From sequence record PQ850618.1: DNA of 64,000 nucleotides. The stretch is one strand, 5' to 3'. The translations under genes were made by a program, and so were the position numbers. Shown here in pieces: positions 4,624 to 62,642 of the stretch. Source of the DNA: Escherichia phage ManiWeber_Bas99. Within the stretch, counting starts at the first letter, position 1; each line of letters starts with the position of its first letter. The notes under the pieces were generated by a model, which had not been told where the DNA came from, did not search any database, and saw only the letters and a program-made list of their open reading frames with translations.

Positions 4624-5475
4624 ATGGCTTTTAAAGCTTCGAAAAAACGTGAACGCCGCTCACCCGATAGAGTCGGGCGCGGCAGTCCGATAATCCCATC
4701 CAACGCTATTGCGATGGCCTATCGTCGTGAGATGAAAGGTCTTTGCTATGCGATGATTGACGACTATCAAGCAGGAATTGCTGAGTGGCTTGAAAAGAAG
4801 CAGGTTAAAAAGTTCTTTGCGCAAGACTCTGCTGATTCAACTTTTCAGACCTTGATGAAGCGACTGCAACTGAAATGGGCAAAAGCTTTCGCCCGTGTCG
4901 GGTCAAAGATTGCCGCAGATTTCATCAAGTCAGTTGAAAAGGGTGCCACTTCTGCTACATTTGCAAGTCTTAAATCTGCAGGAATAGAAGCGCCAAAAGC
5001 CACATATAATAAATTCGTTGAGAACACTCTTAAAACAAGCGAGACGTTCAACACGACTTTAGTGACTAAGGTTGGCGAAGATATTCACAACAGGGTGTAC
5101 GAAGCGGTGATGCTTTCGCTGACTTCGCCAGACCCAGCGCAACAAGGCACGTCAGGCATTCAGGCGGCATTAAGAAATGTAAAACACTTCTCTGCAAAAC
5201 GCGTAGACCTTATCGCTAAAGACCAAACGAGCAAACTTTATTGCGTATTAAGTGATGAAAGGATGCGACAGAATGGCGTTGAGGAATTTGAGTGGGCGCA
5301 TTCAGGAGCAGGCAAAGAGCCGCGAATATCGCATGAGCATGTCGATGGAATGAGATTCAAGCTTGATGACAAACGCTTATGGGAAGTAGGTGGAGAACTT
5401 AAGTTCAAAAAGGGTGACATCGGTCCTCCTGGATGGGCGATACACTGCAAGTGCAGAAAAATACCAATTATCTGA
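4624..5475 (+). CDS. head morphogenesis protein (Mu gpF / SPP1 gp7-like)
   Basis: 284 aa directly after the portal gene; TerL-portal-F synteny typical of Mu-like head modules. Confidence 0.6.
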   Translation: MAFKASKKRERRSPDRVGRGSPIIPSNAIAMAYRREMKGLCYAMIDDYQAGIAEWLEKKQVKKFFAQDSADSTFQTLMKRLQLKWAKAFARVGSKIAADFIKSVEKGATSATFASLKSAGIEAPKATYNKFVENTLKTSETFNTTLVTKVGEDIHNRVYEAVMLSLTSPDPAQQGTSGIQAALRNVKHFSAKRVDLIAKDQTSKLYCVLSDERMRQNGVEEFEWAHSGAGKEPRISHEHVDGMRFKLDDKRLWEVGGELKFKKGDIGPPGWAIHCKCRKIPII

Positions 5476-5482
5476 GGTCATT

Positions 5483-6403
5483 ATGACGATACCAATCAAC
5501 ACATTCCCTCTATCTGGACAAACTCCAGTCTTGCCTGCGGTGTATGCTAATGGCTTGGCGATTGTCTCAGAATTCACTTCTGATAAAAACTTGATTGTTC
5601 CACTGAGCCCGCCGCTTGCATCGGGGTACAACTCAGTAGGTCAATTCTTTATGATTGGCAATGATGGCGATTCGACCAGCAAGCCTAATCTGACATTGTC
5701 TGTACCTAAGATGAACATCACCGACGTTCAAACTGGCTTGACTGCATCAACAATCACCATTGCTTTTGGAGAAGCAGTGATTATAGGAATGGAGTCTGGA
5801 GGGTCCAAGAATGCTGTCGCCGTTAAGGTAGTCAAATCCAGCGACAACCAATACACTTTACCAGCTGCGACGGCTTCCGTTCTCGGCGGCGTCAAAATAG
5901 GAAGCGGAATAAGCGTCGCAGGTGACGGTACAATTAGCGTCACTCAATACTCATTGCCGATTGCGTCAGCATCTACTTTAGGCGGCGTAAAGGTCGGTAC
6001 AACTCTATCAATTGATGGTTCCGGTGTGCTTAACGCAGCGGCAAGCACCGTCCAGAATGCCACGAACAGTGTTAGCAATCCTCCAACCACTTTGGTTAAT
6101 CTGGCAACATTAAACCTTCCTGCAGGCAAGTGGCTGGTCACGGCAAGCCAATTGACCGTTGCAACAGCAGGCGTTCAAGCGAATACCGGAATTACAGTCA
6201 AATTGTCAACAAGCAATTCAGATATTACGGATGATGCATTTACCATGTCAGCTGGCATTCGGGCTGCAGGTCGTTTCGGCGGCAACATCCCAACAAAAGT
6301 AATTACTCTTGCCGCGCCTGGTAATGTGTATTTAAACTATCAGTGCACCGACGCGTTGACATCTACCGTTTACGGACAGATCACCGCAATTAAGCTGAAC
6401 TAA
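5483..6403 (+). CDS. virion protein with tandem LGGVK(I/V)G repeats (fiber-like)
   Basis: ATG at 5483 with GAGGT SD; two repeats ASVLGGVKIGSGISVAGDGTISV and ASTLGGVKVGTTLSIDGSGVLNA; Gly/Thr/Ser-rich. Confidence 0.45.
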   Translation: MTIPINTFPLSGQTPVLPAVYANGLAIVSEFTSDKNLIVPLSPPLASGYNSVGQFFMIGNDGDSTSKPNLTLSVPKMNITDVQTGLTASTITIAFGEAVIIGMESGGSKNAVAVKVVKSSDNQYTLPAATASVLGGVKIGSGISVAGDGTISVTQYSLPIASASTLGGVKVGTTLSIDGSGVLNAAASTVQNATNSVSNPPTTLVNLATLNLPAGKWLVTASQLTVATAGVQANTGITVKLSTSNSDITDDAFTMSAGIRAAGRFGGNIPTKVITLAAPGNVYLNYQCTDALTSTVYGQITAIKLN

Positions 6404-6589
6404 AGAGGAAGTTATGCAAAAGATTATTCAGTCACGTTATGTTAAAGTGCGAAATATTAATTGCAACTCTTTGCTTTCTTGGAAATGGGCTGTTTATGAC
6501 TCGATGTTGATTGGCGTTTTAGTGGCAGGAGTGCTATTTAATATTCACTGAATTCATCGGCAAAGGATTGCCGAGAGTTTTATACGTAT

Positions 6590-6860
6590 AATGACGTATC
6601 ATCCGTATCAAGTAAGTTGTTGTTTTCAAAAGAATCTTACGGATGATACGGATGATACGCGTTGCCGCCGTACTATATAGGAATTCAAATAAATTAATTT
6701 AAAATTATATATCTAATTTAATTTTATTTTTTTATAAACTCTTATATGTGAAAAGTATCCGTATCATCCGTATCATCCGTATCACACCAGTGATAGCGCG
6801 GCTTATACACCGATACGGATAAAAATACGCCTCATTTTATCCGTATCATCCGTATCACAC
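6590..6860. repeat. iteron-like repeat element A
   Basis: Units of CATCCGTATCA in both orientations (6594-6610 forward, 6639-6660 reverse, 6756-6785 forward triple, 6811-6820 reverse, 6839-6858 forward) around an AT-rich core carrying GAATTC; homologous to the element at 58.7 kb. Confidence 0.6.
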
Positions 6861-6914
6861 TAATAAAGGCGCGGCTATATCGGTTGTTATACATATTCAA
6901 ACCATAATTATTGT

Positions 6915-6943
6915 TTGCCTAAGTTTTTTTCATTAGATATAAT
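6915..6943 (+). promoter_or_regulatory. sigma70-like promoter (TTGCCT-17-TATAAT) upstream of scaffold gene
   Basis: Hexamers at 6915-6920 and 6938-6943 with a 17-nt spacer, about 25 nt upstream of the start codon. Confidence 0.4.
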
Positions 6944-6966
6944 ACACAATACTTATTTGAGGGTGG

Positions 6967-8385
6967 ATGCGAATGCAAACGGCACGCGAAATTGACAAAA
7001 ATGGATTCTTGACGATTATGGGTTGTCCGATTTCGTCATTTGGCATTTTTGATTATTCTGCTGGTCAAGTTGGTCTTGATGGTGATCCGAATCGCATCGT
7101 AAAAGTCTATCGCCCTGAGTCAGCGGTGAAAGACCCCGAAGCGATAGATTCATTCAAAAATATCCCTTTCATCGACAATCACGAAATGCTTTCTGGATTT
7201 GAAGGTGATGAGGATAACACAGCACCCGAAGAGTATGGCGTTGATGGCGTTCTAACTGGCAATGTTTATTATGACAAGCCATGGATGCGCGGCGACCTTA
7301 AAGTGTTTAGCCGTCGTCTGAAGAAGGCCATTGATTCTGGAAAGGTTGACTTGTCTTTGGGCTATGACTGTGAATTCATCATACAGTCTGGAGAGTTTGA
7401 CGGGCAGCCGTATGAAGTGGTACAGACAACTCTTCGCGGCAACCACATTGCTCTCGTGGACGTTGGTCGAGTACCAGGTGCACGGGTGCTGGATGGTCGT
7501 TGCTTTGACCATCTTTGTTTGACGACTGTAACACCATCCAACGAGGATTTAGACATGCCAAAACCGTTAAAAGGTAAAGCGCGTGATAATGCTGTTGAAC
7601 AGCTGAAATCACTGATCCCTGCGCTCGAACAATTTCTGAATGAAGAGAGCACCGAAGCGGCTCATCAGGACGAAGTTGAAGTGAAAGCAGAAGAGAAGGA
7701 TTCAACCGAAGAACGTGAAGAAGTGATGGTTGATCCAGAAGTTAAAGCAGAAGCTGAAGAAACTCCAGAAGGTGAAGAGAAGTTTGAAGTTGAAACTGAA
7801 TCTCACGCTGGCGGCGAGCTTCCGCAACTGATCAGCCAAATCGAAGCACTTATTGCAAAACTGAAAGGTGGCGCGGTAGGTGATGAAGAAGAAGTTGAAG
7901 CCGAAGTCAAAGACGAAGAAGTTGAAGTCAAGGCTGAAGATGTATCACCTTGCGACAAAGCTGAAGATGTGGTTAGCGGCCTGCAAAACAGCAACGTAAA
8001 GGGGGCTTCGGTCGAAAAAGATGACAAACCGACAAAAGCGGCGAAAGCGTCGCCAGGTCCAGCAAAAGGGGAACACTCAATGGCATCTGATTCAGCAGTT
8101 GCTGCTTTCTACGCTGATTCTGCTCGTAAGAATAGCCTCTACCAGCGCCTGTCTAAAGTTGTTGGTGCCTTTGATCATGCAACTATGGACTCCAAGTCCG
8201 TAGCGAAATATGGCGCTAAAAAGTTAGGCTTGAAGTGCGTTGATGGTGCTGAGTTTGACGTGGTGGATAATTATCTGCGCGGCGTTGAACACGGTCAAAA
8301 ACAGCGTGTAGTCGCAAAACAAAAGGCCGCTGCGGATTCTGCAGCGACTGACGAAGCATTTGAAGCTTGGTTGAAAGGGGAATAA
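6967..8385 (+). CDS. scaffolding / prohead core protein
   Basis: 472 aa; N-terminal region resembles DUF2213-type phage head proteins (from memory, unverified); central acidic Glu/Lys/Val repeats typical of scaffold proteins; lies upstream of the capsid gene. Confidence 0.5.
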   Translation: MRMQTAREIDKNGFLTIMGCPISSFGIFDYSAGQVGLDGDPNRIVKVYRPESAVKDPEAIDSFKNIPFIDNHEMLSGFEGDEDNTAPEEYGVDGVLTGNVYYDKPWMRGDLKVFSRRLKKAIDSGKVDLSLGYDCEFIIQSGEFDGQPYEVVQTTLRGNHIALVDVGRVPGARVLDGRCFDHLCLTTVTPSNEDLDMPKPLKGKARDNAVEQLKSLIPALEQFLNEESTEAAHQDEVEVKAEEKDSTEEREEVMVDPEVKAEAEETPEGEEKFEVETESHAGGELPQLISQIEALIAKLKGGAVGDEEEVEAEVKDEEVEVKAEDVSPCDKAEDVVSGLQNSNVKGASVEKDDKPTKAAKASPGPAKGEHSMASDSAVAAFYADSARKNSLYQRLSKVVGAFDHATMDSKSVAKYGAKKLGLKCVDGAEFDVVDNYLRGVEHGQKQRVVAKQKAAADSAATDEAFEAWLKGE

Positions 8386-46387: not shown

Positions 46388-47470
46388 ATGGCTAGTTTAA
46401 GAGAAGAAGCAAAAATAATCGAAGAGTTTTTAACAGAACTCCAAAGAGGCATTCCAGAAGATGAGCGCGTCATGACGGTGTTTGCGCCTGAAGCAACGGT
46501 GCAGACTGACGAGCGCGGCAAGAAGATTAACAGCAGCTTCTGGCCTAAGCCTTGGAAGTTGGGCAAGCCGCTCATGCAGCACCAAAACGGCTATGCCTGC
46601 ATCAGTTCAATGCGTAAGTCTCCCAACCCGAAGACGGGTGAGATGCGATACTGGCGTACAGAGTCAGCCTTTGGTCACGGTATGGCGATGATGGTCGACG
46701 ACATCGGTCACGGTAAAGGGTCCAAAGGCGATTTAGATTTGGAATTCTTTTTCGAGCGACTGAAGCCGACTGTCATTGTCGAGACGTCACCGAACAACCA
46801 CCAGCTGTGGTACTTCTTTAAAGAACCAATTGACCATCTTATTCAGTTCAAAGCATTCCTTGGGTCTTTCGTAAACATGGTACTCAAGAAGGGCGGCGAC
46901 AACACGATTAAAGACGTAACGCGCGTGGGCCGTGTTCCTGGGTGCATCAACAACAAGCGCGTGACTCACGACGGCCCCTATAAATATGTCGATGAGAACG
47001 GCGACCCGTTCCGCTGCCGACTTGTCCATGCAGATTACTCCTTGCGCTACACCATCGAAGACATTTGTCAGGCATTCGGCTTTCACGTTGTAATGCCGCA
47101 AAAGCGTGAGATTCAAATTGACGTCGATGAATACAAATACGATGCTGTTTGGTATAAGATAGCCCAGCAGATTCTAGCGCGCAACAAGATGGGTGAAGGG
47201 TCTGATGGCGACGTTATCGAGAATATGTCAGGTAAGTGTCGCATAATCTGTCCTTGGGGTGAAGAGCACACCAACGGCGACCCGTATGGCGCTTACTTTC
47301 GCGGCCCTATCCCTGGTGCAGAACATGAATTTGTGTTCGGTTGCGCCCACGACTGTCACCGGAAAGGGGAAGGCAAGAAAGGTTGGACCGCTTTTGTTGA
47401 AGCAATCGTCATGCCTTATATTGAGAATCAACTTGACATGATAAATCGTCGTGCAGGTGGCATAAAATAG
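46388..47470 (+). CDS. DNA primase, archaeo-eukaryotic (prim-pol) type
   Basis: 360 aa; MVDDIG (acidic DxD-like) and SPNNHQLWYFF resemble AEP catalytic motifs; C-terminal Cys/His cluster. Confidence 0.5.
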   Translation: MASLREEAKIIEEFLTELQRGIPEDERVMTVFAPEATVQTDERGKKINSSFWPKPWKLGKPLMQHQNGYACISSMRKSPNPKTGEMRYWRTESAFGHGMAMMVDDIGHGKGSKGDLDLEFFFERLKPTVIVETSPNNHQLWYFFKEPIDHLIQFKAFLGSFVNMVLKKGGDNTIKDVTRVGRVPGCINNKRVTHDGPYKYVDENGDPFRCRLVHADYSLRYTIEDICQAFGFHVVMPQKREIQIDVDEYKYDAVWYKIAQQILARNKMGEGSDGDVIENMSGKCRIICPWGEEHTNGDPYGAYFRGPIPGAEHEFVFGCAHDCHRKGEGKKGWTAFVEAIVMPYIENQLDMINRRAGGIK

Positions 47471-48780: not shown

Positions 48781-50451
48781 ATGTCAATTAATAATGACAA
48801 TCTTCCAGAGGATACAGGTGATGAATTTGGTGCAATCTTTGACGAAATTCAAGATGCAGGCGTTTCGGAAGAAATGCAGGCAGCAGAGCAGCAAGGCACC
48901 AGAGCTAAAATCAGCCTTCAACATAAAGCCGTTGAAAAAGATTCAGAGCGCATGGAATGCTACGGTGAAGAAGACTTGGTTGAAAGAGCACGCTTGCTCG
49001 CCTCACTTCAGGTAATCAAGTTCCCTCACTACAAGCCTACCAAAGATGACTTCGTTCTACAGGCAGACCGGACGAGTGACATGAACCGTTATGCGGTTTT
49101 CGACGCGTTGTTTGATAAGGGAAGTGGCATTGTTCCATTCCCTCACAAAGATACTTTTCGTGGGCGCTTAGTCGACCATCGCGGCGAAACATTCACTGAC
49201 CGTACCTTGGAAGTCACAGAGATAGTTGCCGCTGTCGACGCAGCAGGGCTGTCCAACCCAAACTCACGTCAGGTCGCTCAATCCTATAAGGAATGGGCCA
49301 TGCGTTATCAGCGCGACGACCTGATGGACTTCTTCTACAAGAAGCTGCCTGAATGGGACGGTACTGCGCGCATCGAGAAATACCTTATCGAGCTATTCCG
49401 ACCGTTCGATACAGAGTTAAACCGACGAATCGGTGTGTATTTTTGGCTATCGCTCTATAACCGCCTGACCAACCCTGGCTGTCAAGCGCCAATCTCCATC
49501 GCGCTCATCGGCGGCCAGAACGCAGGGAAGAGTTATTTTAGCAAGCTGCTTTGCGAAGCTATTATGAACGACCGCCACGCAACACCGATTCCGTTGAACT
49601 TAGCCGCGCAAAACTTCAACCCGTTCTTGCGCGCCATCACGGGTCGCTCCATTATCGCGAACGTTGGCGAGATGACAGGCTTTAAAAAGGCTGACATCGA
49701 AAACATGAAAGCATTCCTGACTAAGACGGAAGACGACCTGGACTTCAAATTTGAAGATACACAGGTTAAACCACGCCAGTGGATTGCTATTATGGACGGC
49801 AACGAATACGCAGGCATGCAGCGTGATGACACGGGCAACCGTCGTGTGTATCCTATCTTTGTTGGCCAACTTGCCGACAAGGACGGGCAGCCGAACTGGT
49901 CGAAAGACTTCCAAGCTGACCTTTCCACTTTGAAAGAAGACGTTTGGCAGTTGATGGCTGAGTGCGCTGCGTGGATGGAGAAGCACGGCGAAGCAGGCTA
50001 TAACGCGTTTGTTGGTGAAACATCTCGCATGCTTACTGAGTTCAGTAAAAACGAAATGGAACGCGCTCGCGGCGTTATCCGTGATGAGATGGTTGACAAC
50101 GACCTTGTTGAAGTCGTCATCACCGCGCCTTATGACCGACATCACAGCGGACGCTGGCACATCACCAGTGGTGCTATTGCTATGGGATTCAGAGCGAAGT
50201 GTGGCAAGTCGCCTTTCTCTCGTACCCTTGCGCCACACATGTCGAAGCTTGGTTTTGAGCCTGCAACCTATCGCAACCAGCGCGGTTACTTTACGCCGCT
50301 GATTAAGAATGAAGCAGGAGAATACATTTCTGATTTGATGACCATCTTAGCGTATCTTATTCGCGATGAGTCTGACCCTGAAGATATTGAATTCTTGAAG
50401 AAGGTTATCGAGCGTAAACGTTCTTTGGGAAGAGATAAGGATGAATTCTGA
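48781..50451 (+). CDS. P-loop NTPase, primase-associated helicase candidate
   Basis: 556 aa; Walker A GGQNAGKS; resembles P4-alpha/VirE-type helicase regions (from memory); same operon as the primase. Confidence 0.55.
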   Translation: MSINNDNLPEDTGDEFGAIFDEIQDAGVSEEMQAAEQQGTRAKISLQHKAVEKDSERMECYGEEDLVERARLLASLQVIKFPHYKPTKDDFVLQADRTSDMNRYAVFDALFDKGSGIVPFPHKDTFRGRLVDHRGETFTDRTLEVTEIVAAVDAAGLSNPNSRQVAQSYKEWAMRYQRDDLMDFFYKKLPEWDGTARIEKYLIELFRPFDTELNRRIGVYFWLSLYNRLTNPGCQAPISIALIGGQNAGKSYFSKLLCEAIMNDRHATPIPLNLAAQNFNPFLRAITGRSIIANVGEMTGFKKADIENMKAFLTKTEDDLDFKFEDTQVKPRQWIAIMDGNEYAGMQRDDTGNRRVYPIFVGQLADKDGQPNWSKDFQADLSTLKEDVWQLMAECAAWMEKHGEAGYNAFVGETSRMLTEFSKNEMERARGVIRDEMVDNDLVEVVITAPYDRHHSGRWHITSGAIAMGFRAKCGKSPFSRTLAPHMSKLGFEPATYRNQRGYFTPLIKNEAGEYISDLMTILAYLIRDESDPEDIEFLKKVIERKRSLGRDKDEF

Positions 50452-58214: not shown

Positions 58215-58710
58215 GCCTGTGTAATGGGAGGCTTTTGTGGTTATTTACGATTCAAGGCTGTAATTTAAGAGAGCGAAAATATTATAATAATTTATCAAGA
58301 TTATTGCATATTGTGGCAATCAACGTTTATACGTATTTATGACAGTTTAATCCACTAAATAATACGGATAGAACAGTGAGGAAAATACAGCGGTGTATTT
58401 TAGTGTAAATATTGAATCAAAAATAAATAATTATGGTGCTATTATATACGCAGATTGTTTGTAATTTATAGGATATTTTATCGTGGAGTATTGGCTAACG
58501 GTGCGTTAGCCGTGGGTCTTGGTGCTTGTGGTGTTGATGCTCAGAATTTTAATAATGTTTTTAGTTTTAGTAATCGTAGTCAATGATGATACGTATAAGA
58601 AAATGAGAGTCACCCCTTCACAGGATATTGTACCGTGGCCCTGTGGCGCGCCGCGCCTGGGATTGCTGGTATACACTGGTGCTATTTTGCCGCGAAGGCA
58701 GTCATTCATA

Positions 58711-58952
58711 CGTATCATGACGTATCATTGGGCTATTGATTTATAAGGAAAAATACGCTGATACGGATGATACGGATGCAAACATAATATATATAGAATT
58801 CCAGAAAATTAATTAACTCCATTTTGAATTAATTTAAATTAATTTTTTTCTACATCCTCATACTTATACTAAACTTATATTTATACGTATTATCCGTAAG
58901 ATATAAGTAAAAACAAAGACTTGCGGCAATACGGATGATACGTCATGATACG
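58711..58952. repeat. iteron-like repeat element B
   Basis: CGTATCATGACGTATCA (58711-58727), GATACGGATGATACGGATG (58759-58778), AT-rich core with GAATTC, TTATCCGTAAG (58889-58899), ATACGGATGATACGTCATGATACG (58929-58952); same units and core as the element at 6.6 kb. Confidence 0.6.
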
Positions 58953-59166
58953 CTTCAACCAGCCAGCAGCGGCTAAGTCATTGATTTGCATAGCAAGCGG
59001 CGAAAGGGATGGATTTCTTTTATACGTATCAAACAGTACACCACGCACCACGGTCCGTTATCCATTCAGCAATATGATTTGTGTACGTTTATAGCCATAA
59101 TGAACATCAATCTGCACTTGAATATAATGTTCATCCATTGTATAATTCACACTATTAATTTGCACT

Positions 59167-59655
59167 ATGGGATTTTGCACTATGAGTCAAGATTATGTAG
59201 CGATGCCTGAAGACTTTGAAGACCCGCGATTTGCAGAGCACAATCAGGCTTTATTCGATGAGTTCATTGACCTTGTTATTCAGGGCCATGACATGCGCGC
59301 AGCTTTTGCACTAGTATTTGGAATGGAAGTTGCAACGGATAACTACACTGGCCAGCGAATCCTTTGCACGCAACGCAATCCATACTACAAGATGCGCTTC
59401 AAAAAGCGTATGGAAGAGATGCCACTCAAGGATTTGTGGAGCGTAAAAGGTGCAATTCACAATTTGGTTAAGCTTGTGCGTGATCCAGAAGTCGCAGCGT
59501 CAGCCAAGCTTAATGCTATTCGTGAACTGAATATCATCTACGGCATCACGATGATTGATGAAAACGGCAATAGTAAAATGGGCCGTTCCATGGACGATTT
59601 CTACAAGGATTTTGGAGAGGCGGCCAAAGAAGGTGAGCAATTCTCCCGCCACTAG
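59167..59655 (+). CDS. hypothetical protein
   Basis: 162 aa (alternative ATG at 59182); both candidate starts are immediately preceded by a copy of the TTTGCACTAT motif. Confidence 0.45.
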   Translation: MGFCTMSQDYVAMPEDFEDPRFAEHNQALFDEFIDLVIQGHDMRAAFALVFGMEVATDNYTGQRILCTQRNPYYKMRFKKRMEEMPLKDLWSVKGAIHNLVKLVRDPEVAASAKLNAIRELNIIYGITMIDENGNSKMGRSMDDFYKDFGEAAKEGEQFSRH

Positions 59656-60083: not shown

Positions 60084-60710
60084 TTAGATAATCTGGAAGG
60101 TGTAGGACTTGTTGCCGAACTCGAAGTTCAAGCGCCCAGCTTCCTTAAGCTTCATGCGGAAGCGAATGTGCTTGCTATCCGGTAATCCCAGCGCGGCGAA
60201 CGCTACGCGGACCGATTTGAACTCGCCTACACCCTCGACCATGACACCGTTACGGGTAAGACGCTTTTGCGCCACTTCCTTATTATCCCAGCTTTTTGCA
60301 ATACCTTCGCTATTCGAACGGCGATGGGAAGGAGTTCCATTTTGCACTACGCAATTTGCACTATCGTTTAAACCGCTCTTAACGAAGGCTTCATATTCTT
60401 CGTCGGTCATCGCGTCGAGTTCTTCCTGGGTCGGCTCAGCCTTTTTAACGACCGCACGCGCCTTATGCGTTTTTACATCGCTGGACACTTCCTCGCGCGA
60501 CTTCGCGTCTGGGATGGGCGATTCGTTGGACGGCTCATCTAGCGCGTTTAAGGACTCGATTAACGCGATGACGCGAGTCTCAGCGGTCCGGCGGTCCGAA
60601 AATTTCTTAATCGGCTTCGAACCGGAATTTGCATTATAAAATGCAACGAGGTCGGCGGTCTTAGTTGCGATAACGTCGCCGCTAGTCGAGAAACGATTTA
60701 AGCTAACCAT
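60084..60710 (-). CDS. hypothetical acidic protein
   Basis: 208 aa; SD AGGAG upstream of ATG; carries the motif as DSANCVVQ. Confidence 0.5.
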   Translation of the reverse strand: MVSLNRFSTSGDVIATKTADLVAFYNANSGSKPIKKFSDRRTAETRVIALIESLNALDEPSNESPIPDAKSREEVSSDVKTHKARAVVKKAEPTQEELDAMTDEEYEAFVKSGLNDSANCVVQNGTPSHRRSNSEGIAKSWDNKEVAQKRLTRNGVMVEGVGEFKSVRVAFAALGLPDSKHIRFRMKLKEAGRLNFEFGNKSYTFQII

Positions 60711-62045: not shown

Positions 62046-62642
62046 CGCCCCTATCTCGGTGCGCTCCTACGCGAAAACTCCTTTATCCTTACCTTCGTCG
62101 TCGCATAATCTTCGTCGAGATGCTCCTTAGTTCGCATAACAGGTATTACGTTAAATGGAGAACATCGCGTAAGTCGTTGTTTTATATAGACACCTATATC
62201 GGACCGTTAGCGAGGGTCGCGTAAGTCGTTGTTTTATAAAGGCGCAAAACTTTCCCTTCGTTCCGAACTAAAACGAGGAATATGCCGACCCTTCGCCCGA
62301 AAATAGTACGCATGCGATATTACCGACATCTAGAATAATCCCTCCCGATATTATTACGCGCTCAATCATTAGCTTTCGAATCATTATGCTGCATACTATT
62401 ATGCGCCAAATCATTAGCCTTCGAATTGTAACGCTGGAAACTGTAACGTCGATTGATTATTGCGTTCGTGTGGTTTTTAGGACATGGGTCTTTTGGTGCG
62501 TTTTGCTACTTGATGGAATTTGCAGTACACTAATCAAAATACGACACATTTGGTCCACTAACTTTTCAAAGAAAAAGTCCTAGACAGTACCGTACTATTT
62601 TGTACCCACAGGAAATTTGCCGTACACTCCTGCGCGGCAGGC

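Follow-up and report, generated by a model that had tools for sequence, protein, structure and literature searches.

Escherichia phage ManiWeber_Bas99 is a Wifcevirus, a PB1-like myovirus of E. coli, and a close relative, HermannAdler (Bas98), shares ~96% identity with the stretch of DNA analysed here. This stretch (record PQ850618.1; 64,000 nt, referred to as a whole as the window) represents 64 kb out of a unit genome of ~68.4 kb and starts at the large terminase gene. Our subject is a pair of homologous elements within it, element A (6582-6858) and element B (58708-59033), in which arrays of a short repeated unit surround an AT-rich core. The genes around them are laid out as follows.

1-28.5 kb, plus strand: structural genes
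28.5-46.4 kb, minus strand: DNA metabolism genes
46.4-58.2 kb, plus strand: two primase/helicase genes and about 25 small early genes
after 58.2 kb: a gene-free stretch of ~1 kb, then terS, the gene for the small terminase subunit

Element A is located between a Mu-F-like head morphogenesis gene (4624-5475), which is followed by two further open reading frames (ORFs), and a protease gene at 6967. The original prediction, made from the letters of the window alone, had proposed two homologous elements ~52 kb apart, one between head-morphogenesis genes and a scaffold gene and the other in a gene-free region of ~1 kb before the right-end genes. Both elements were indeed found there, and the context of B was confirmed; for A the neighbourhood is as described, except that the supposed scaffold gene is annotated as a head maturation protease (PF09979). 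Each element is preceded by a terminator-like hairpin and followed by a near-consensus sigma-70 promoter. The individual signals are listed below; positions 6886-6966, which cover the promoter after A, are invariant across eight genomes. An Rfam scan of the window gave no match.

6557-6574, plus strand: terminator-like hairpin that ends the upstream head-gene transcript, directly before A
6915-6943, plus strand: sigma-70-like promoter TTGCCT-17-TATAAT of the protease/decoration/major capsid operon, downstream of A
59118-59146, plus strand: sigma-70-like promoter TTGAAT-17-TATAAT of terS

Anatomy of elements A and B

The repeated unit is (A/C)CGTATCAT, arranged head to tail with a spacing of 9 or 10 bp. 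Its 8-mer CGTATCAT occurs 14 times in the window, where 1.8±1.3 copies are expected, and none of 100 dinucleotide-preserving shuffles reached this number. All but two of the 14 copies reside inside the elements, six in A and six in B. The 9-mer ATCCGTATC is found 10 times in 64 kb (8 copies in A and 2 in B; ~0.24 expected per strand). In both elements, a core of ~100 bp is flanked on either side by two arrays that face each other across ~30 bp, so that the whole is dyad-symmetric around the core. With degenerate copies included, A comprises 12 and B 10-11 units, about six per side. The inner arrays of A and B are alike in being minus-sense to the left and plus-sense to the right of the core, thus pointing outward. 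The predicted combination of direct and inverted units around an AT-rich core was confirmed in both elements, whose parts are these:

6582-6611, plus strand: A left outer array, three units (CGTATAAT, CGTATCAT, CGTATCAA) spaced 10 and 9 bp
6634-6659, minus strand: A left inner array, three units (CGTATCAT twice, CGTAAGAT) spaced 9 bp
6660-6755, no strand: A AT-rich core, putative DNA-unwinding region, 90% AT over 6674-6753
6756-6785, plus strand: A right inner array, three units (CGTATCAT twice, CGTATCAC)
6812-6820, minus strand: A single inverted unit GATACGGAT
6839-6858, plus strand: A right outer array, two units
58586: B left outlying unit
58708-58728, plus strand: B left outer array, two units spaced 10 bp (CGTATCATGACGTATCAT)
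58757-58778, minus strand: B left inner array, two units
58779-58884, no strand: B AT-rich core, 85% AT over 58805-58884
58883-58902, plus strand: B right inner array, two degenerate units (CGTATTAT, CGTAAGAT)
58926-58952, minus strand: B right outer array, three units
59022-59033, plus strand: B outlying unit ATACGTATCAAA

No other 80-bp window in the 64 kb is as AT-rich as the two cores, which reach 90% and 85% against a mean of 54%; that of A is almost invariant in eight Wifceviruses. A perfect 18-nt inverted repeat joins 58711-58728 with the right outer array of B, its arms lying 206 nt apart, and its two edges bear out the limits of 58711-58952 first assigned to B. Within A, a direct repeat (units, CACAC.. 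and GCGCGGCT) relates 6766-6803 to 6839-6876; it exists as predicted, although it extends over only 38 nt at 87% identity and not over the 45 bp originally claimed. In phage Bas101 (locus L024), the left inner array of A lacks exactly one 9-bp unit (6634-6642), which shows that the number of units varies through slippage while the element persists.

By blastn, the inverted alignment of A and B covers 207 columns at 70% identity (E 2e-19), and the direct one covers 250 columns at 63%. Their local alignment scores of 58 (direct) and 56 (inverted) compare with 14.7±2.1 (maximum 23) for shuffled B, a z of about 20. When the units were removed, the cores scored 29 in direct orientation, against 16.9±2.3 after shuffling, but only 18 when inverted. 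Because the unit-free cores align directly and not inverted, the sequences identify A and B as co-oriented paralogues whose similarity goes beyond low-complexity AT-rich DNA, which settles the point that the pairwise alignment proposed with the original prediction was meant to decide. The flanks read alike both ways because they are dyad-symmetric. A core string said to be common to the two elements is present in both, as TATATAGGAATTCAAATAAATTAATT in A and as TATATAGAATTCCAGAAAATTAATT in B. No third copy of the element was found in the 4.4 kb outside the window by a whole-genome scan of Bas98; an apparent third place in some records proved to be A and B matching each other in both orientations.

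By homology, packaged DNA starts in the core of element B

In GenBank, the record of phage WFC begins and ends with an exact 3784-bp repeat, in line with the ~3.7-kb terminal repeat given by its authors (PMC6563267), and the Mansfield record has a direct terminal repeat of 3673 bp as predicted by PhageTerm (PMC6753283). The first base of either record aligns with position 58821 of the window, whereas none of the records examined starts at A. By homology, 58821 is therefore the left boundary of the direct terminal repeat, and the cut falls between 58820 and 58821, within the core of B. Since the WFC and Mansfield records start inside this core, homology shows that packaged DNA, with its terminal repeats, has its left end in B. 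Two features mark the site:

58811-58826, plus strand: terminus box, AATTAACTCC followed directly by ATTTTG; packaged DNA starts between the two, at 58821, by homology
59182-59655, plus strand: terS, small terminase subunit, 361 bp to the right of the terminus

The terminus box is invariant in eight Wifceviruses and is kept in a more distant relative (L030) with a 69% identical TerS protein; its CTCC is absent from A. Among the eight Wifceviruses, the sequence to the right of the terminus, inside the repeat, is conserved, whereas that to the left is mosaic and cannot be aligned between lineages. This mosaic left flank has retained the terminus box and a GCCGCGMCTGG box as well as the inner array of units, situated ~45-60 bp upstream, and the divergent left flank of each lineage still contains additional copies of the unit. 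The identity of terS is firm: a profile built from the protein and its homologues matches the small terminase of Pbunavirus E217 (PDB 7UXE) with an E of 1.5e-45, and the predicted fold agrees. An end within the site and an adjoining terS, both features of pac and cos sites, were found for B and neither for A. The option of packaging-related sites, raised originally for both elements, thus holds for B, in whose core the left end maps by homology, while A is not a known end.

The other end of the terminal repeat looks different. By homology, its right boundary lies at ~62494 (Mansfield) or ~62576 (WFC), and the end of the record of Pantoea phage Kyle aligns at a spot homologous to ~62494, ~44 nt upstream of CAGTACACTAATCA. 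The region 62360-62580 contains no CGTATCAT units and has repeats of its own: AATCATTAGCyTTCGAAT at 62364-62381 and 62409-62426, and TGTAACG twice within 62427-62448. The motif AATCATTAGCCTTC occurs both in this region and at the boundary in Kyle. Possibly, 62360-62580 is a separate recognition site for the right end.

Some further observations concern the repeat and its surroundings. TTTGCACTATG occurs twice at 59159-59184, overlapping the start codon of terS; L030 has TGCACTATG three times at the terS start, and another relative, L032, has related copies. These repeats possibly serve translational or autoregulatory control of terS. A 208-residue protein (60084-60710, minus strand) is encoded inside the terminal repeat, convergent to terS in Wifcevirus, Kyle, Pbunavirus PS44 and metagenomic relatives; within the genus its conservation is 97-100%, and it belongs to phrog_4730, annotated as of unknown function. 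We considered this protein as a nuclease or DNA binder and dropped the idea, as there was no match in Pfam, NCBIfam or PDB and its homologues, being 97-100% identical, afforded no useful alignment. Two short metagenomic Logan contigs from distant relatives, L031 (1-6380) and L032 (1-3983), begin 100-190 bp left of a B-like core and run rightwards through terS, and L032 is about as long as the terminal repeat; their starts may reflect an assembly break at a repeat of double coverage.

The pair is conserved and its unit changes in concert

Relatives were collected via TerS and the head protease, and more than 100 of them have complete contigs. An A/B pair was found at the identical two positions in Wifcevirus, Kylevirus, Pbunavirus and Myosmarvirus, with a unit that differs from genus to genus and yet is common to the A and B of each:

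Wifcevirus (window): unit CGTATCA, 9 copies in A, 7 in B, 6 elsewhere in 63 kb
Kylevirus (Kyle): unit GGTTATT, 6 copies in A, 7 in B, none elsewhere in 22.6 kb
Pbunavirus (PS44): unit GTAATTT, 2 copies in A, 2 in B, none elsewhere in 25 kb
Myosmarvirus (MyoSmar): unit TACTTTTCG, pair present

The genome end follows the element across these genera. Kyle, whose TerS is 43% identical and whose units read GGTTATT/AATAACC, has an exact 3603-bp terminal repeat, and its record starts in the core of its B. In the Pbunaviruses PS44 and Ab27, the pair has GTAATTTGG units and long stretches common to A and B. For Ab27 a single fixed read end has been reported (PMC4482731), and we find that it maps within the B-like element of this phage. 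In Serratia phage MyoSmar, A and B align at an E of 4e-13, the PhageTerm repeat measures 3559 bp and its boundary falls in B, within ~30 bp of the core. A 72.5-kb metagenomic relative (TerS 69%) possesses both elements with slightly drifted units and an identical terminus box. Two more distant contigs show the architecture of B upstream of terS, with the units ACGGAT(A/G) and ATACGGAAG.

Element A is under purifying selection: within Wifcevirus 5-6% of its columns vary, while the third codon positions in the flanking genes vary at 12-35%. Because there are four units in four genera, and the A and B of each genome share one, the concerted change points to a single phage-encoded, sequence-specific protein that would bind both elements and co-evolve with them. 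Viral contigs were searched for exact matches to the double 9-mer, which retrieved the known Wifceviruses and otherwise only single matches, probably due to chance. The pair is undescribed in the literature on Wifcevirus or Pbunavirus that we searched.

A helicase that may read the units, and resemblance to known origins

Two genes of the early region are of particular relevance here:

46388-47470, plus strand: RepB-type primase, partner of the helicase (Pfam PF16793, E 4.5e-36)
48781-50451, plus strand: VapE-like superfamily 3 (SF3) helicase of 556 amino acids, candidate origin-binding, self-loading initiator

The helicase is recognised by Pfam PF05272 (E 2.6e-28) and matches PDB 7PDS, the complex of SaPI1 Rep1 with DNA (E 7e-11). 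Compared with its MyoSmar orthologue, the core is 58-66% identical, while the last ~106 residues reach only 18-28%; such a hypervariable C-terminus is what would be expected of a specificity domain. B is the immediate downstream neighbour of the helicase gene in MyoSmar and in Ab27, where the two are 368 bp apart. Pfam scans of the replication-region proteins detected only the RepB primase, VapE, and Dda-like and SNF2 helicases, and neither these scans nor the annotation revealed a DnaB-type helicase or a loader. A DNA-binding domain was likewise not detected by Pfam in any of 23 small early or terminal-repeat ORFs. The half-sites, with about six units each, would each suit a hexamer.

These findings recall the origins of Staphylococcus aureus pathogenicity islands (SaPIs), which consist of 6-12 iterons around a central AT-rich region with at least two iterons per side in opposite orientation; the Rep protein is a helicase that loads itself without a loader, its C-terminal winged helix binding the iterons, likely as one hexamer per side (PMC9371898). 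Both A and B match SaPI origins in the number of iterons, the AT-rich centre and at least two opposed units on each side. The phage likewise encodes an SF3 helicase homologous to Rep1, with a variable C-terminus and with no loader found. SaPI origins lie immediately 3' of rep, and a B-like element directly follows the helicase gene in Pbunavirus and Myosmarvirus, although not in the window, where B starts 8.3 kb downstream of this gene. Unlike SaPIs, the phage has two copies, one in the head-gene cluster and the other with the virion end inside it, and its units measure 8-9 bp rather than the 5-6 bp of SaPI iterons.

The layout of the pair resembles that of Bacillus phage SPP1, which has two homologous origins, oriL and oriR, composed of repeats and an AT-rich unwinding element. 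Inserted among the assembly genes, oriR has gene 7 (Mu-F-like) on one side and the scaffold gene on the other and is bracketed by transcription signals, and the initiator bound there has been suggested to stall forks and to set off the synthesis of concatemers (PMC6316719). ManiWeber_Bas99 also has two homologous copies of repeats plus AT-rich DNA, of which A, bracketed by terminator and promoter, occupies the position of oriR. Element B, just upstream of terS and with repeats on both sides of the DNA end, resembles in addition the pacL-pacC-pacR site of SPP1 (PMC6316719). The two phages differ in that the SPP1 initiator gp38, loader gp39 and DnaB-type helicase gp40 have no counterparts detected by Pfam here, that oriL is inside the initiator gene and the SPP1 pac separate from both origins, and that SPP1 packages by the headful mechanism whereas our phage has fixed terminal repeats.

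Other systems share single traits with the pair. The pac site of P1 and the cosB-cosN region of lambda are packaging sites with repeats that bind a terminase subunit around the cut; ManiWeber_Bas99 differs from these in having a second, uncut copy 16 kb away, an extremely AT-rich centre and dyad-symmetric units. In P4, the separate iteron regions ori and crr are both read by the C-terminal domain of the alpha primase-helicase, flank the alpha gene within a few kb and are both needed in cis for one origin function. Two separate iteron regions are thus common to P4 and our phage, but those of P4 have no link to the genome end. T7 has one origin at ~15-20% of its genome and origin-like elements beside the boundaries of its terminal repeats. 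The likeness to T7 extends to fixed terminal repeats, with A located at ~22% of the genome and B at the left boundary; T7 origins, however, are promoters for the phage RNA polymerase next to AT-rich DNA and have no iterons, and the T7 end lies outside them. In sum, A and B would work like SaPI-type origins and are laid out like oriL and oriR, and B behaves like a pac site or terminal-repeat boundary. We nevertheless assign the pair to none of these systems, because B is not beside the helicase gene here, the SPP1 initiator set is absent and TerS binding is only putative.

Elements A and B as candidate twin origins of replication

In our judgement the chances are about even that A and B are twin origins of replication and that B doubles as the packaging cut site. 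A phage-encoded protein would read the units, most likely the VapE/SaPI-Rep-like SF3 helicase through its hypervariable C-terminal domain, and one hexamer would be loaded on each side of the core. The core would then melt, allowing the RepB-type primase and the phage polymerase to begin synthesis there. By homology, the left genome end is made inside the core of B. Element A, in the head-gene cluster, would be either another origin or a barrier to forks with firmly bound protein. Among the roles initially listed for the pair (origins, control regions for a phage regulator, packaging-related sites), an origin is the best supported, on account of the SaPI-like architecture, the encoded Rep1 homologue and the oriR position, with packaging retained for B only. 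Which protein binds the units, that replication starts at A and B, and what A does are points that we infer.

Several observations weigh against such twin origins. An analysis of nucleotide skew in Pbunavirus placed putative origins inside replication genes (PMC12390725). The units of 8-9 bp, longer than SaPI iterons and spaced 9-10 bp apart, would suit successive DNA-binding domains in a ring-shaped small terminase equally well, and terS next to B together with a virion end in the core of B would alone be the signature of a packaging site. In the window the helicase gene adjoins neither element. The C-terminal domain of the helicase yielded a single-sequence model with a predicted local distance difference test score (pLDDT) of 43, too poor to reveal a fold, and its profile matched nothing in PDB. 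Finally, we know of no precedent for a virion end inside the unwinding region of an origin. GC skew, recommended at the outset as a check for an origin, proved uninformative because it tracks the direction of transcription only, rising over plus-strand and falling over minus-strand genes; both GC and AT skew were accordingly discarded as origin markers.

A bolder version of the twin-origin model, which we consider unlikely, holds that replication origin B is both the place and the cause of left-end formation in the terminally repeated genome. Firing of B on a concatemer would re-replicate the 3.7-kb terminal-repeat region and leave a double-strand end exactly in the unwound core, thereby duplicating the repeat and providing the start for terminase, while A would be another origin, or else a fork barrier with bound protein by which replication is switched to the synthesis of concatemers. 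If this were true, origin recognition and packaging initiation would be a single site throughout the PB1-like phages.

Alternative explanations

The position of the genome end lends itself to another view, which we regard as possible although doubtful, namely that both elements are recognition sites of TerS. A ring decamer would contact successive units, one at each helical turn, on both sides of a bendable AT-rich centre, and the large subunit would cut B between the arrays, as in pacL-pacC-pacR of SPP1 or in P1 pac. Element A would be an uncut paralogue that titrates or regulates TerS or pairs with B in a T4-style synapsis of two rings sensing concatemer maturity. This agrees with the virion end in the core of B in Wifcevirus, Kylevirus and Myosmarvirus (within ~30 bp), with the read end of Ab27 inside its B-like element (PMC4482731), with terS being the next gene after B and with the 9-10 bp spacing, which fits a ring of helix-turn-helix domains. 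Repeats around the cut are the design of pac in SPP1, whose TerS additionally represses transcription from its own promoter (PMC6316719). In both Wifcevirus and Pbunavirus, A departs from B exactly at the cut position, as would fit a need to avoid cutting A. The homologous TerS of E217 is reported to form higher-order oligomers, yet also to lack appreciable DNA binding in vitro (PMC9611059). Moreover, A lies ~16 kb from terS and is not a known end, yet it is conserved as strongly as B in four genera, and recognition by TerS assigns it no established role. Recognition by TerS also leaves unexplained why the cores are the two most AT-rich spots of the genome, and why the units have dyad symmetry when a rotationally symmetric ring would be expected to favour direct repeats.

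The location of each element between a terminator and a near-consensus sigma-70 promoter could instead suggest duplicated operator or enhancer regions, through which a phage regulator would co-control the sigma-70-type promoters of terS and of the protease-capsid genes, with the terminus in B being incidental. Sequences of Kyle and MyoSmar likewise read as TATAAT-type promoters after both elements, and late genes with host-type promoters would need timing control. We nonetheless find this improbable: the -35 hexamers lie 60-330 bp downstream of the arrays, which bracket an AT-rich core of 100 bp for which a simple operator has no use, the 23 small ORFs provide no detected DNA-binding domain for a regulator, and the genome end in the core of B in several genera is left unaccounted for. 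The RepB type of the phage primase brings to mind RSF1010, where ssiA and ssiB of oriV are priming signals for a RepB'-type primase, and the inverted arrays might be single-strand priming hairpins of this kind. Indeed, all four half-sites fold as single-stranded DNA to a stem of 13-16 bp, with dG of -10 to -18 kcal/mol and z of -2.8 to -5.6. Such folding potential, however, follows automatically from inverted arrays, the perfect 18-nt complementarity in B links arms 206 nt apart, in the two outer arrays on opposite sides of the core, rather than within a half-site, a spacing of 11 versus 9 bp in the arms of Kyle would make bulged stems, and tandem copies of a single short unit argue for protein binding; we attach only a slim chance to hairpins. 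That A and B are a selfish or mobile element useless to the phage, akin to a miniature inverted-repeat transposable element (MITE) with terminal inverted repeats, is hardly credible. A perfect 18-nt inverted repeat does bound B and there are two copies per genome, but these occupy identical positions in four genera with concerted change of the unit, A is constrained more than synonymous sites, exact searches of viral contigs gave no further copies outside Wifceviruses, and no transposase is present.

Binding sites for host proteins were also considered and rejected. Compared with DnaA boxes (TTATCCACA), the unit in its context (TTATCCGTA) has mismatches at positions 7 and 9, no more than one or two units have the TTATCC prefix, and the unit changes completely between genera on related hosts. 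A reading of the unit as a site for integration host factor (IHF) was ruled out by its sequence and by the same change between genera.

Significance for PB1-like phages

PB1-like phages, comprising Pbunavirus and its relatives, are among those most used in Pseudomonas therapy, and no origin has been mapped in them. Their genome ends have been reported contradictorily (PMC12390725). The conserved and easily recognised pair offers concrete candidate sites for the origin and the packaging signal, which would help to reboot or engineer PB1-like genomes. Should the end truly form inside an origin, this would be a new coupling of replication to packaging in phages with long terminal repeats. Three outcomes were not anticipated by the original prediction: the terminus in B, the conservation in at least four genera with genus-specific units, and the uninformative GC skew.

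Additional boxes flanking the elements

Outside the arrays, an 11-mer box recurs to the left of each element:

6311-6321, plus strand: GCCGCGCCTGG box, 274 bp left of the first unit of A, inside a coding sequence
58650-58660, plus strand: GCCGCGCCTGG box left of B

These are the only exact copies of GCCGCGCCTGG in the window, both on the plus strand. The box is found once in every Wifcevirus A and B locus examined, and also in L032 and MyoSmar; at B it is conserved despite the otherwise mosaic left flank. Its link to A is weak, because the copy at 6311 is part of a coding sequence. For Pbunavirus 14-1, a CTGG(G) core has been reported in phage-specific promoters, where the motif reads CTGGG (PMC10914365). 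GCCGCGCCTGG contains CTGG(G), and the box could be a phage-specific promoter firing into the elements.

Boxes of the type GCGGC(A/T) also accompany both cores (6663-6668, 6798-6802, 6871-6875, 58650-58693 and 58923-59001). They are not over-represented, with 3 and 5 per 400 bp where the 99th percentile is 5. Their orientation is minus-sense to the left and plus-sense to the right of the core in all eight boxes, and the pattern is repeated in Kyle, PS44/Ab27 and MyoSmar although the main unit differs. GCGGC(A/T) may be a second recognition motif that is independent of the genus.

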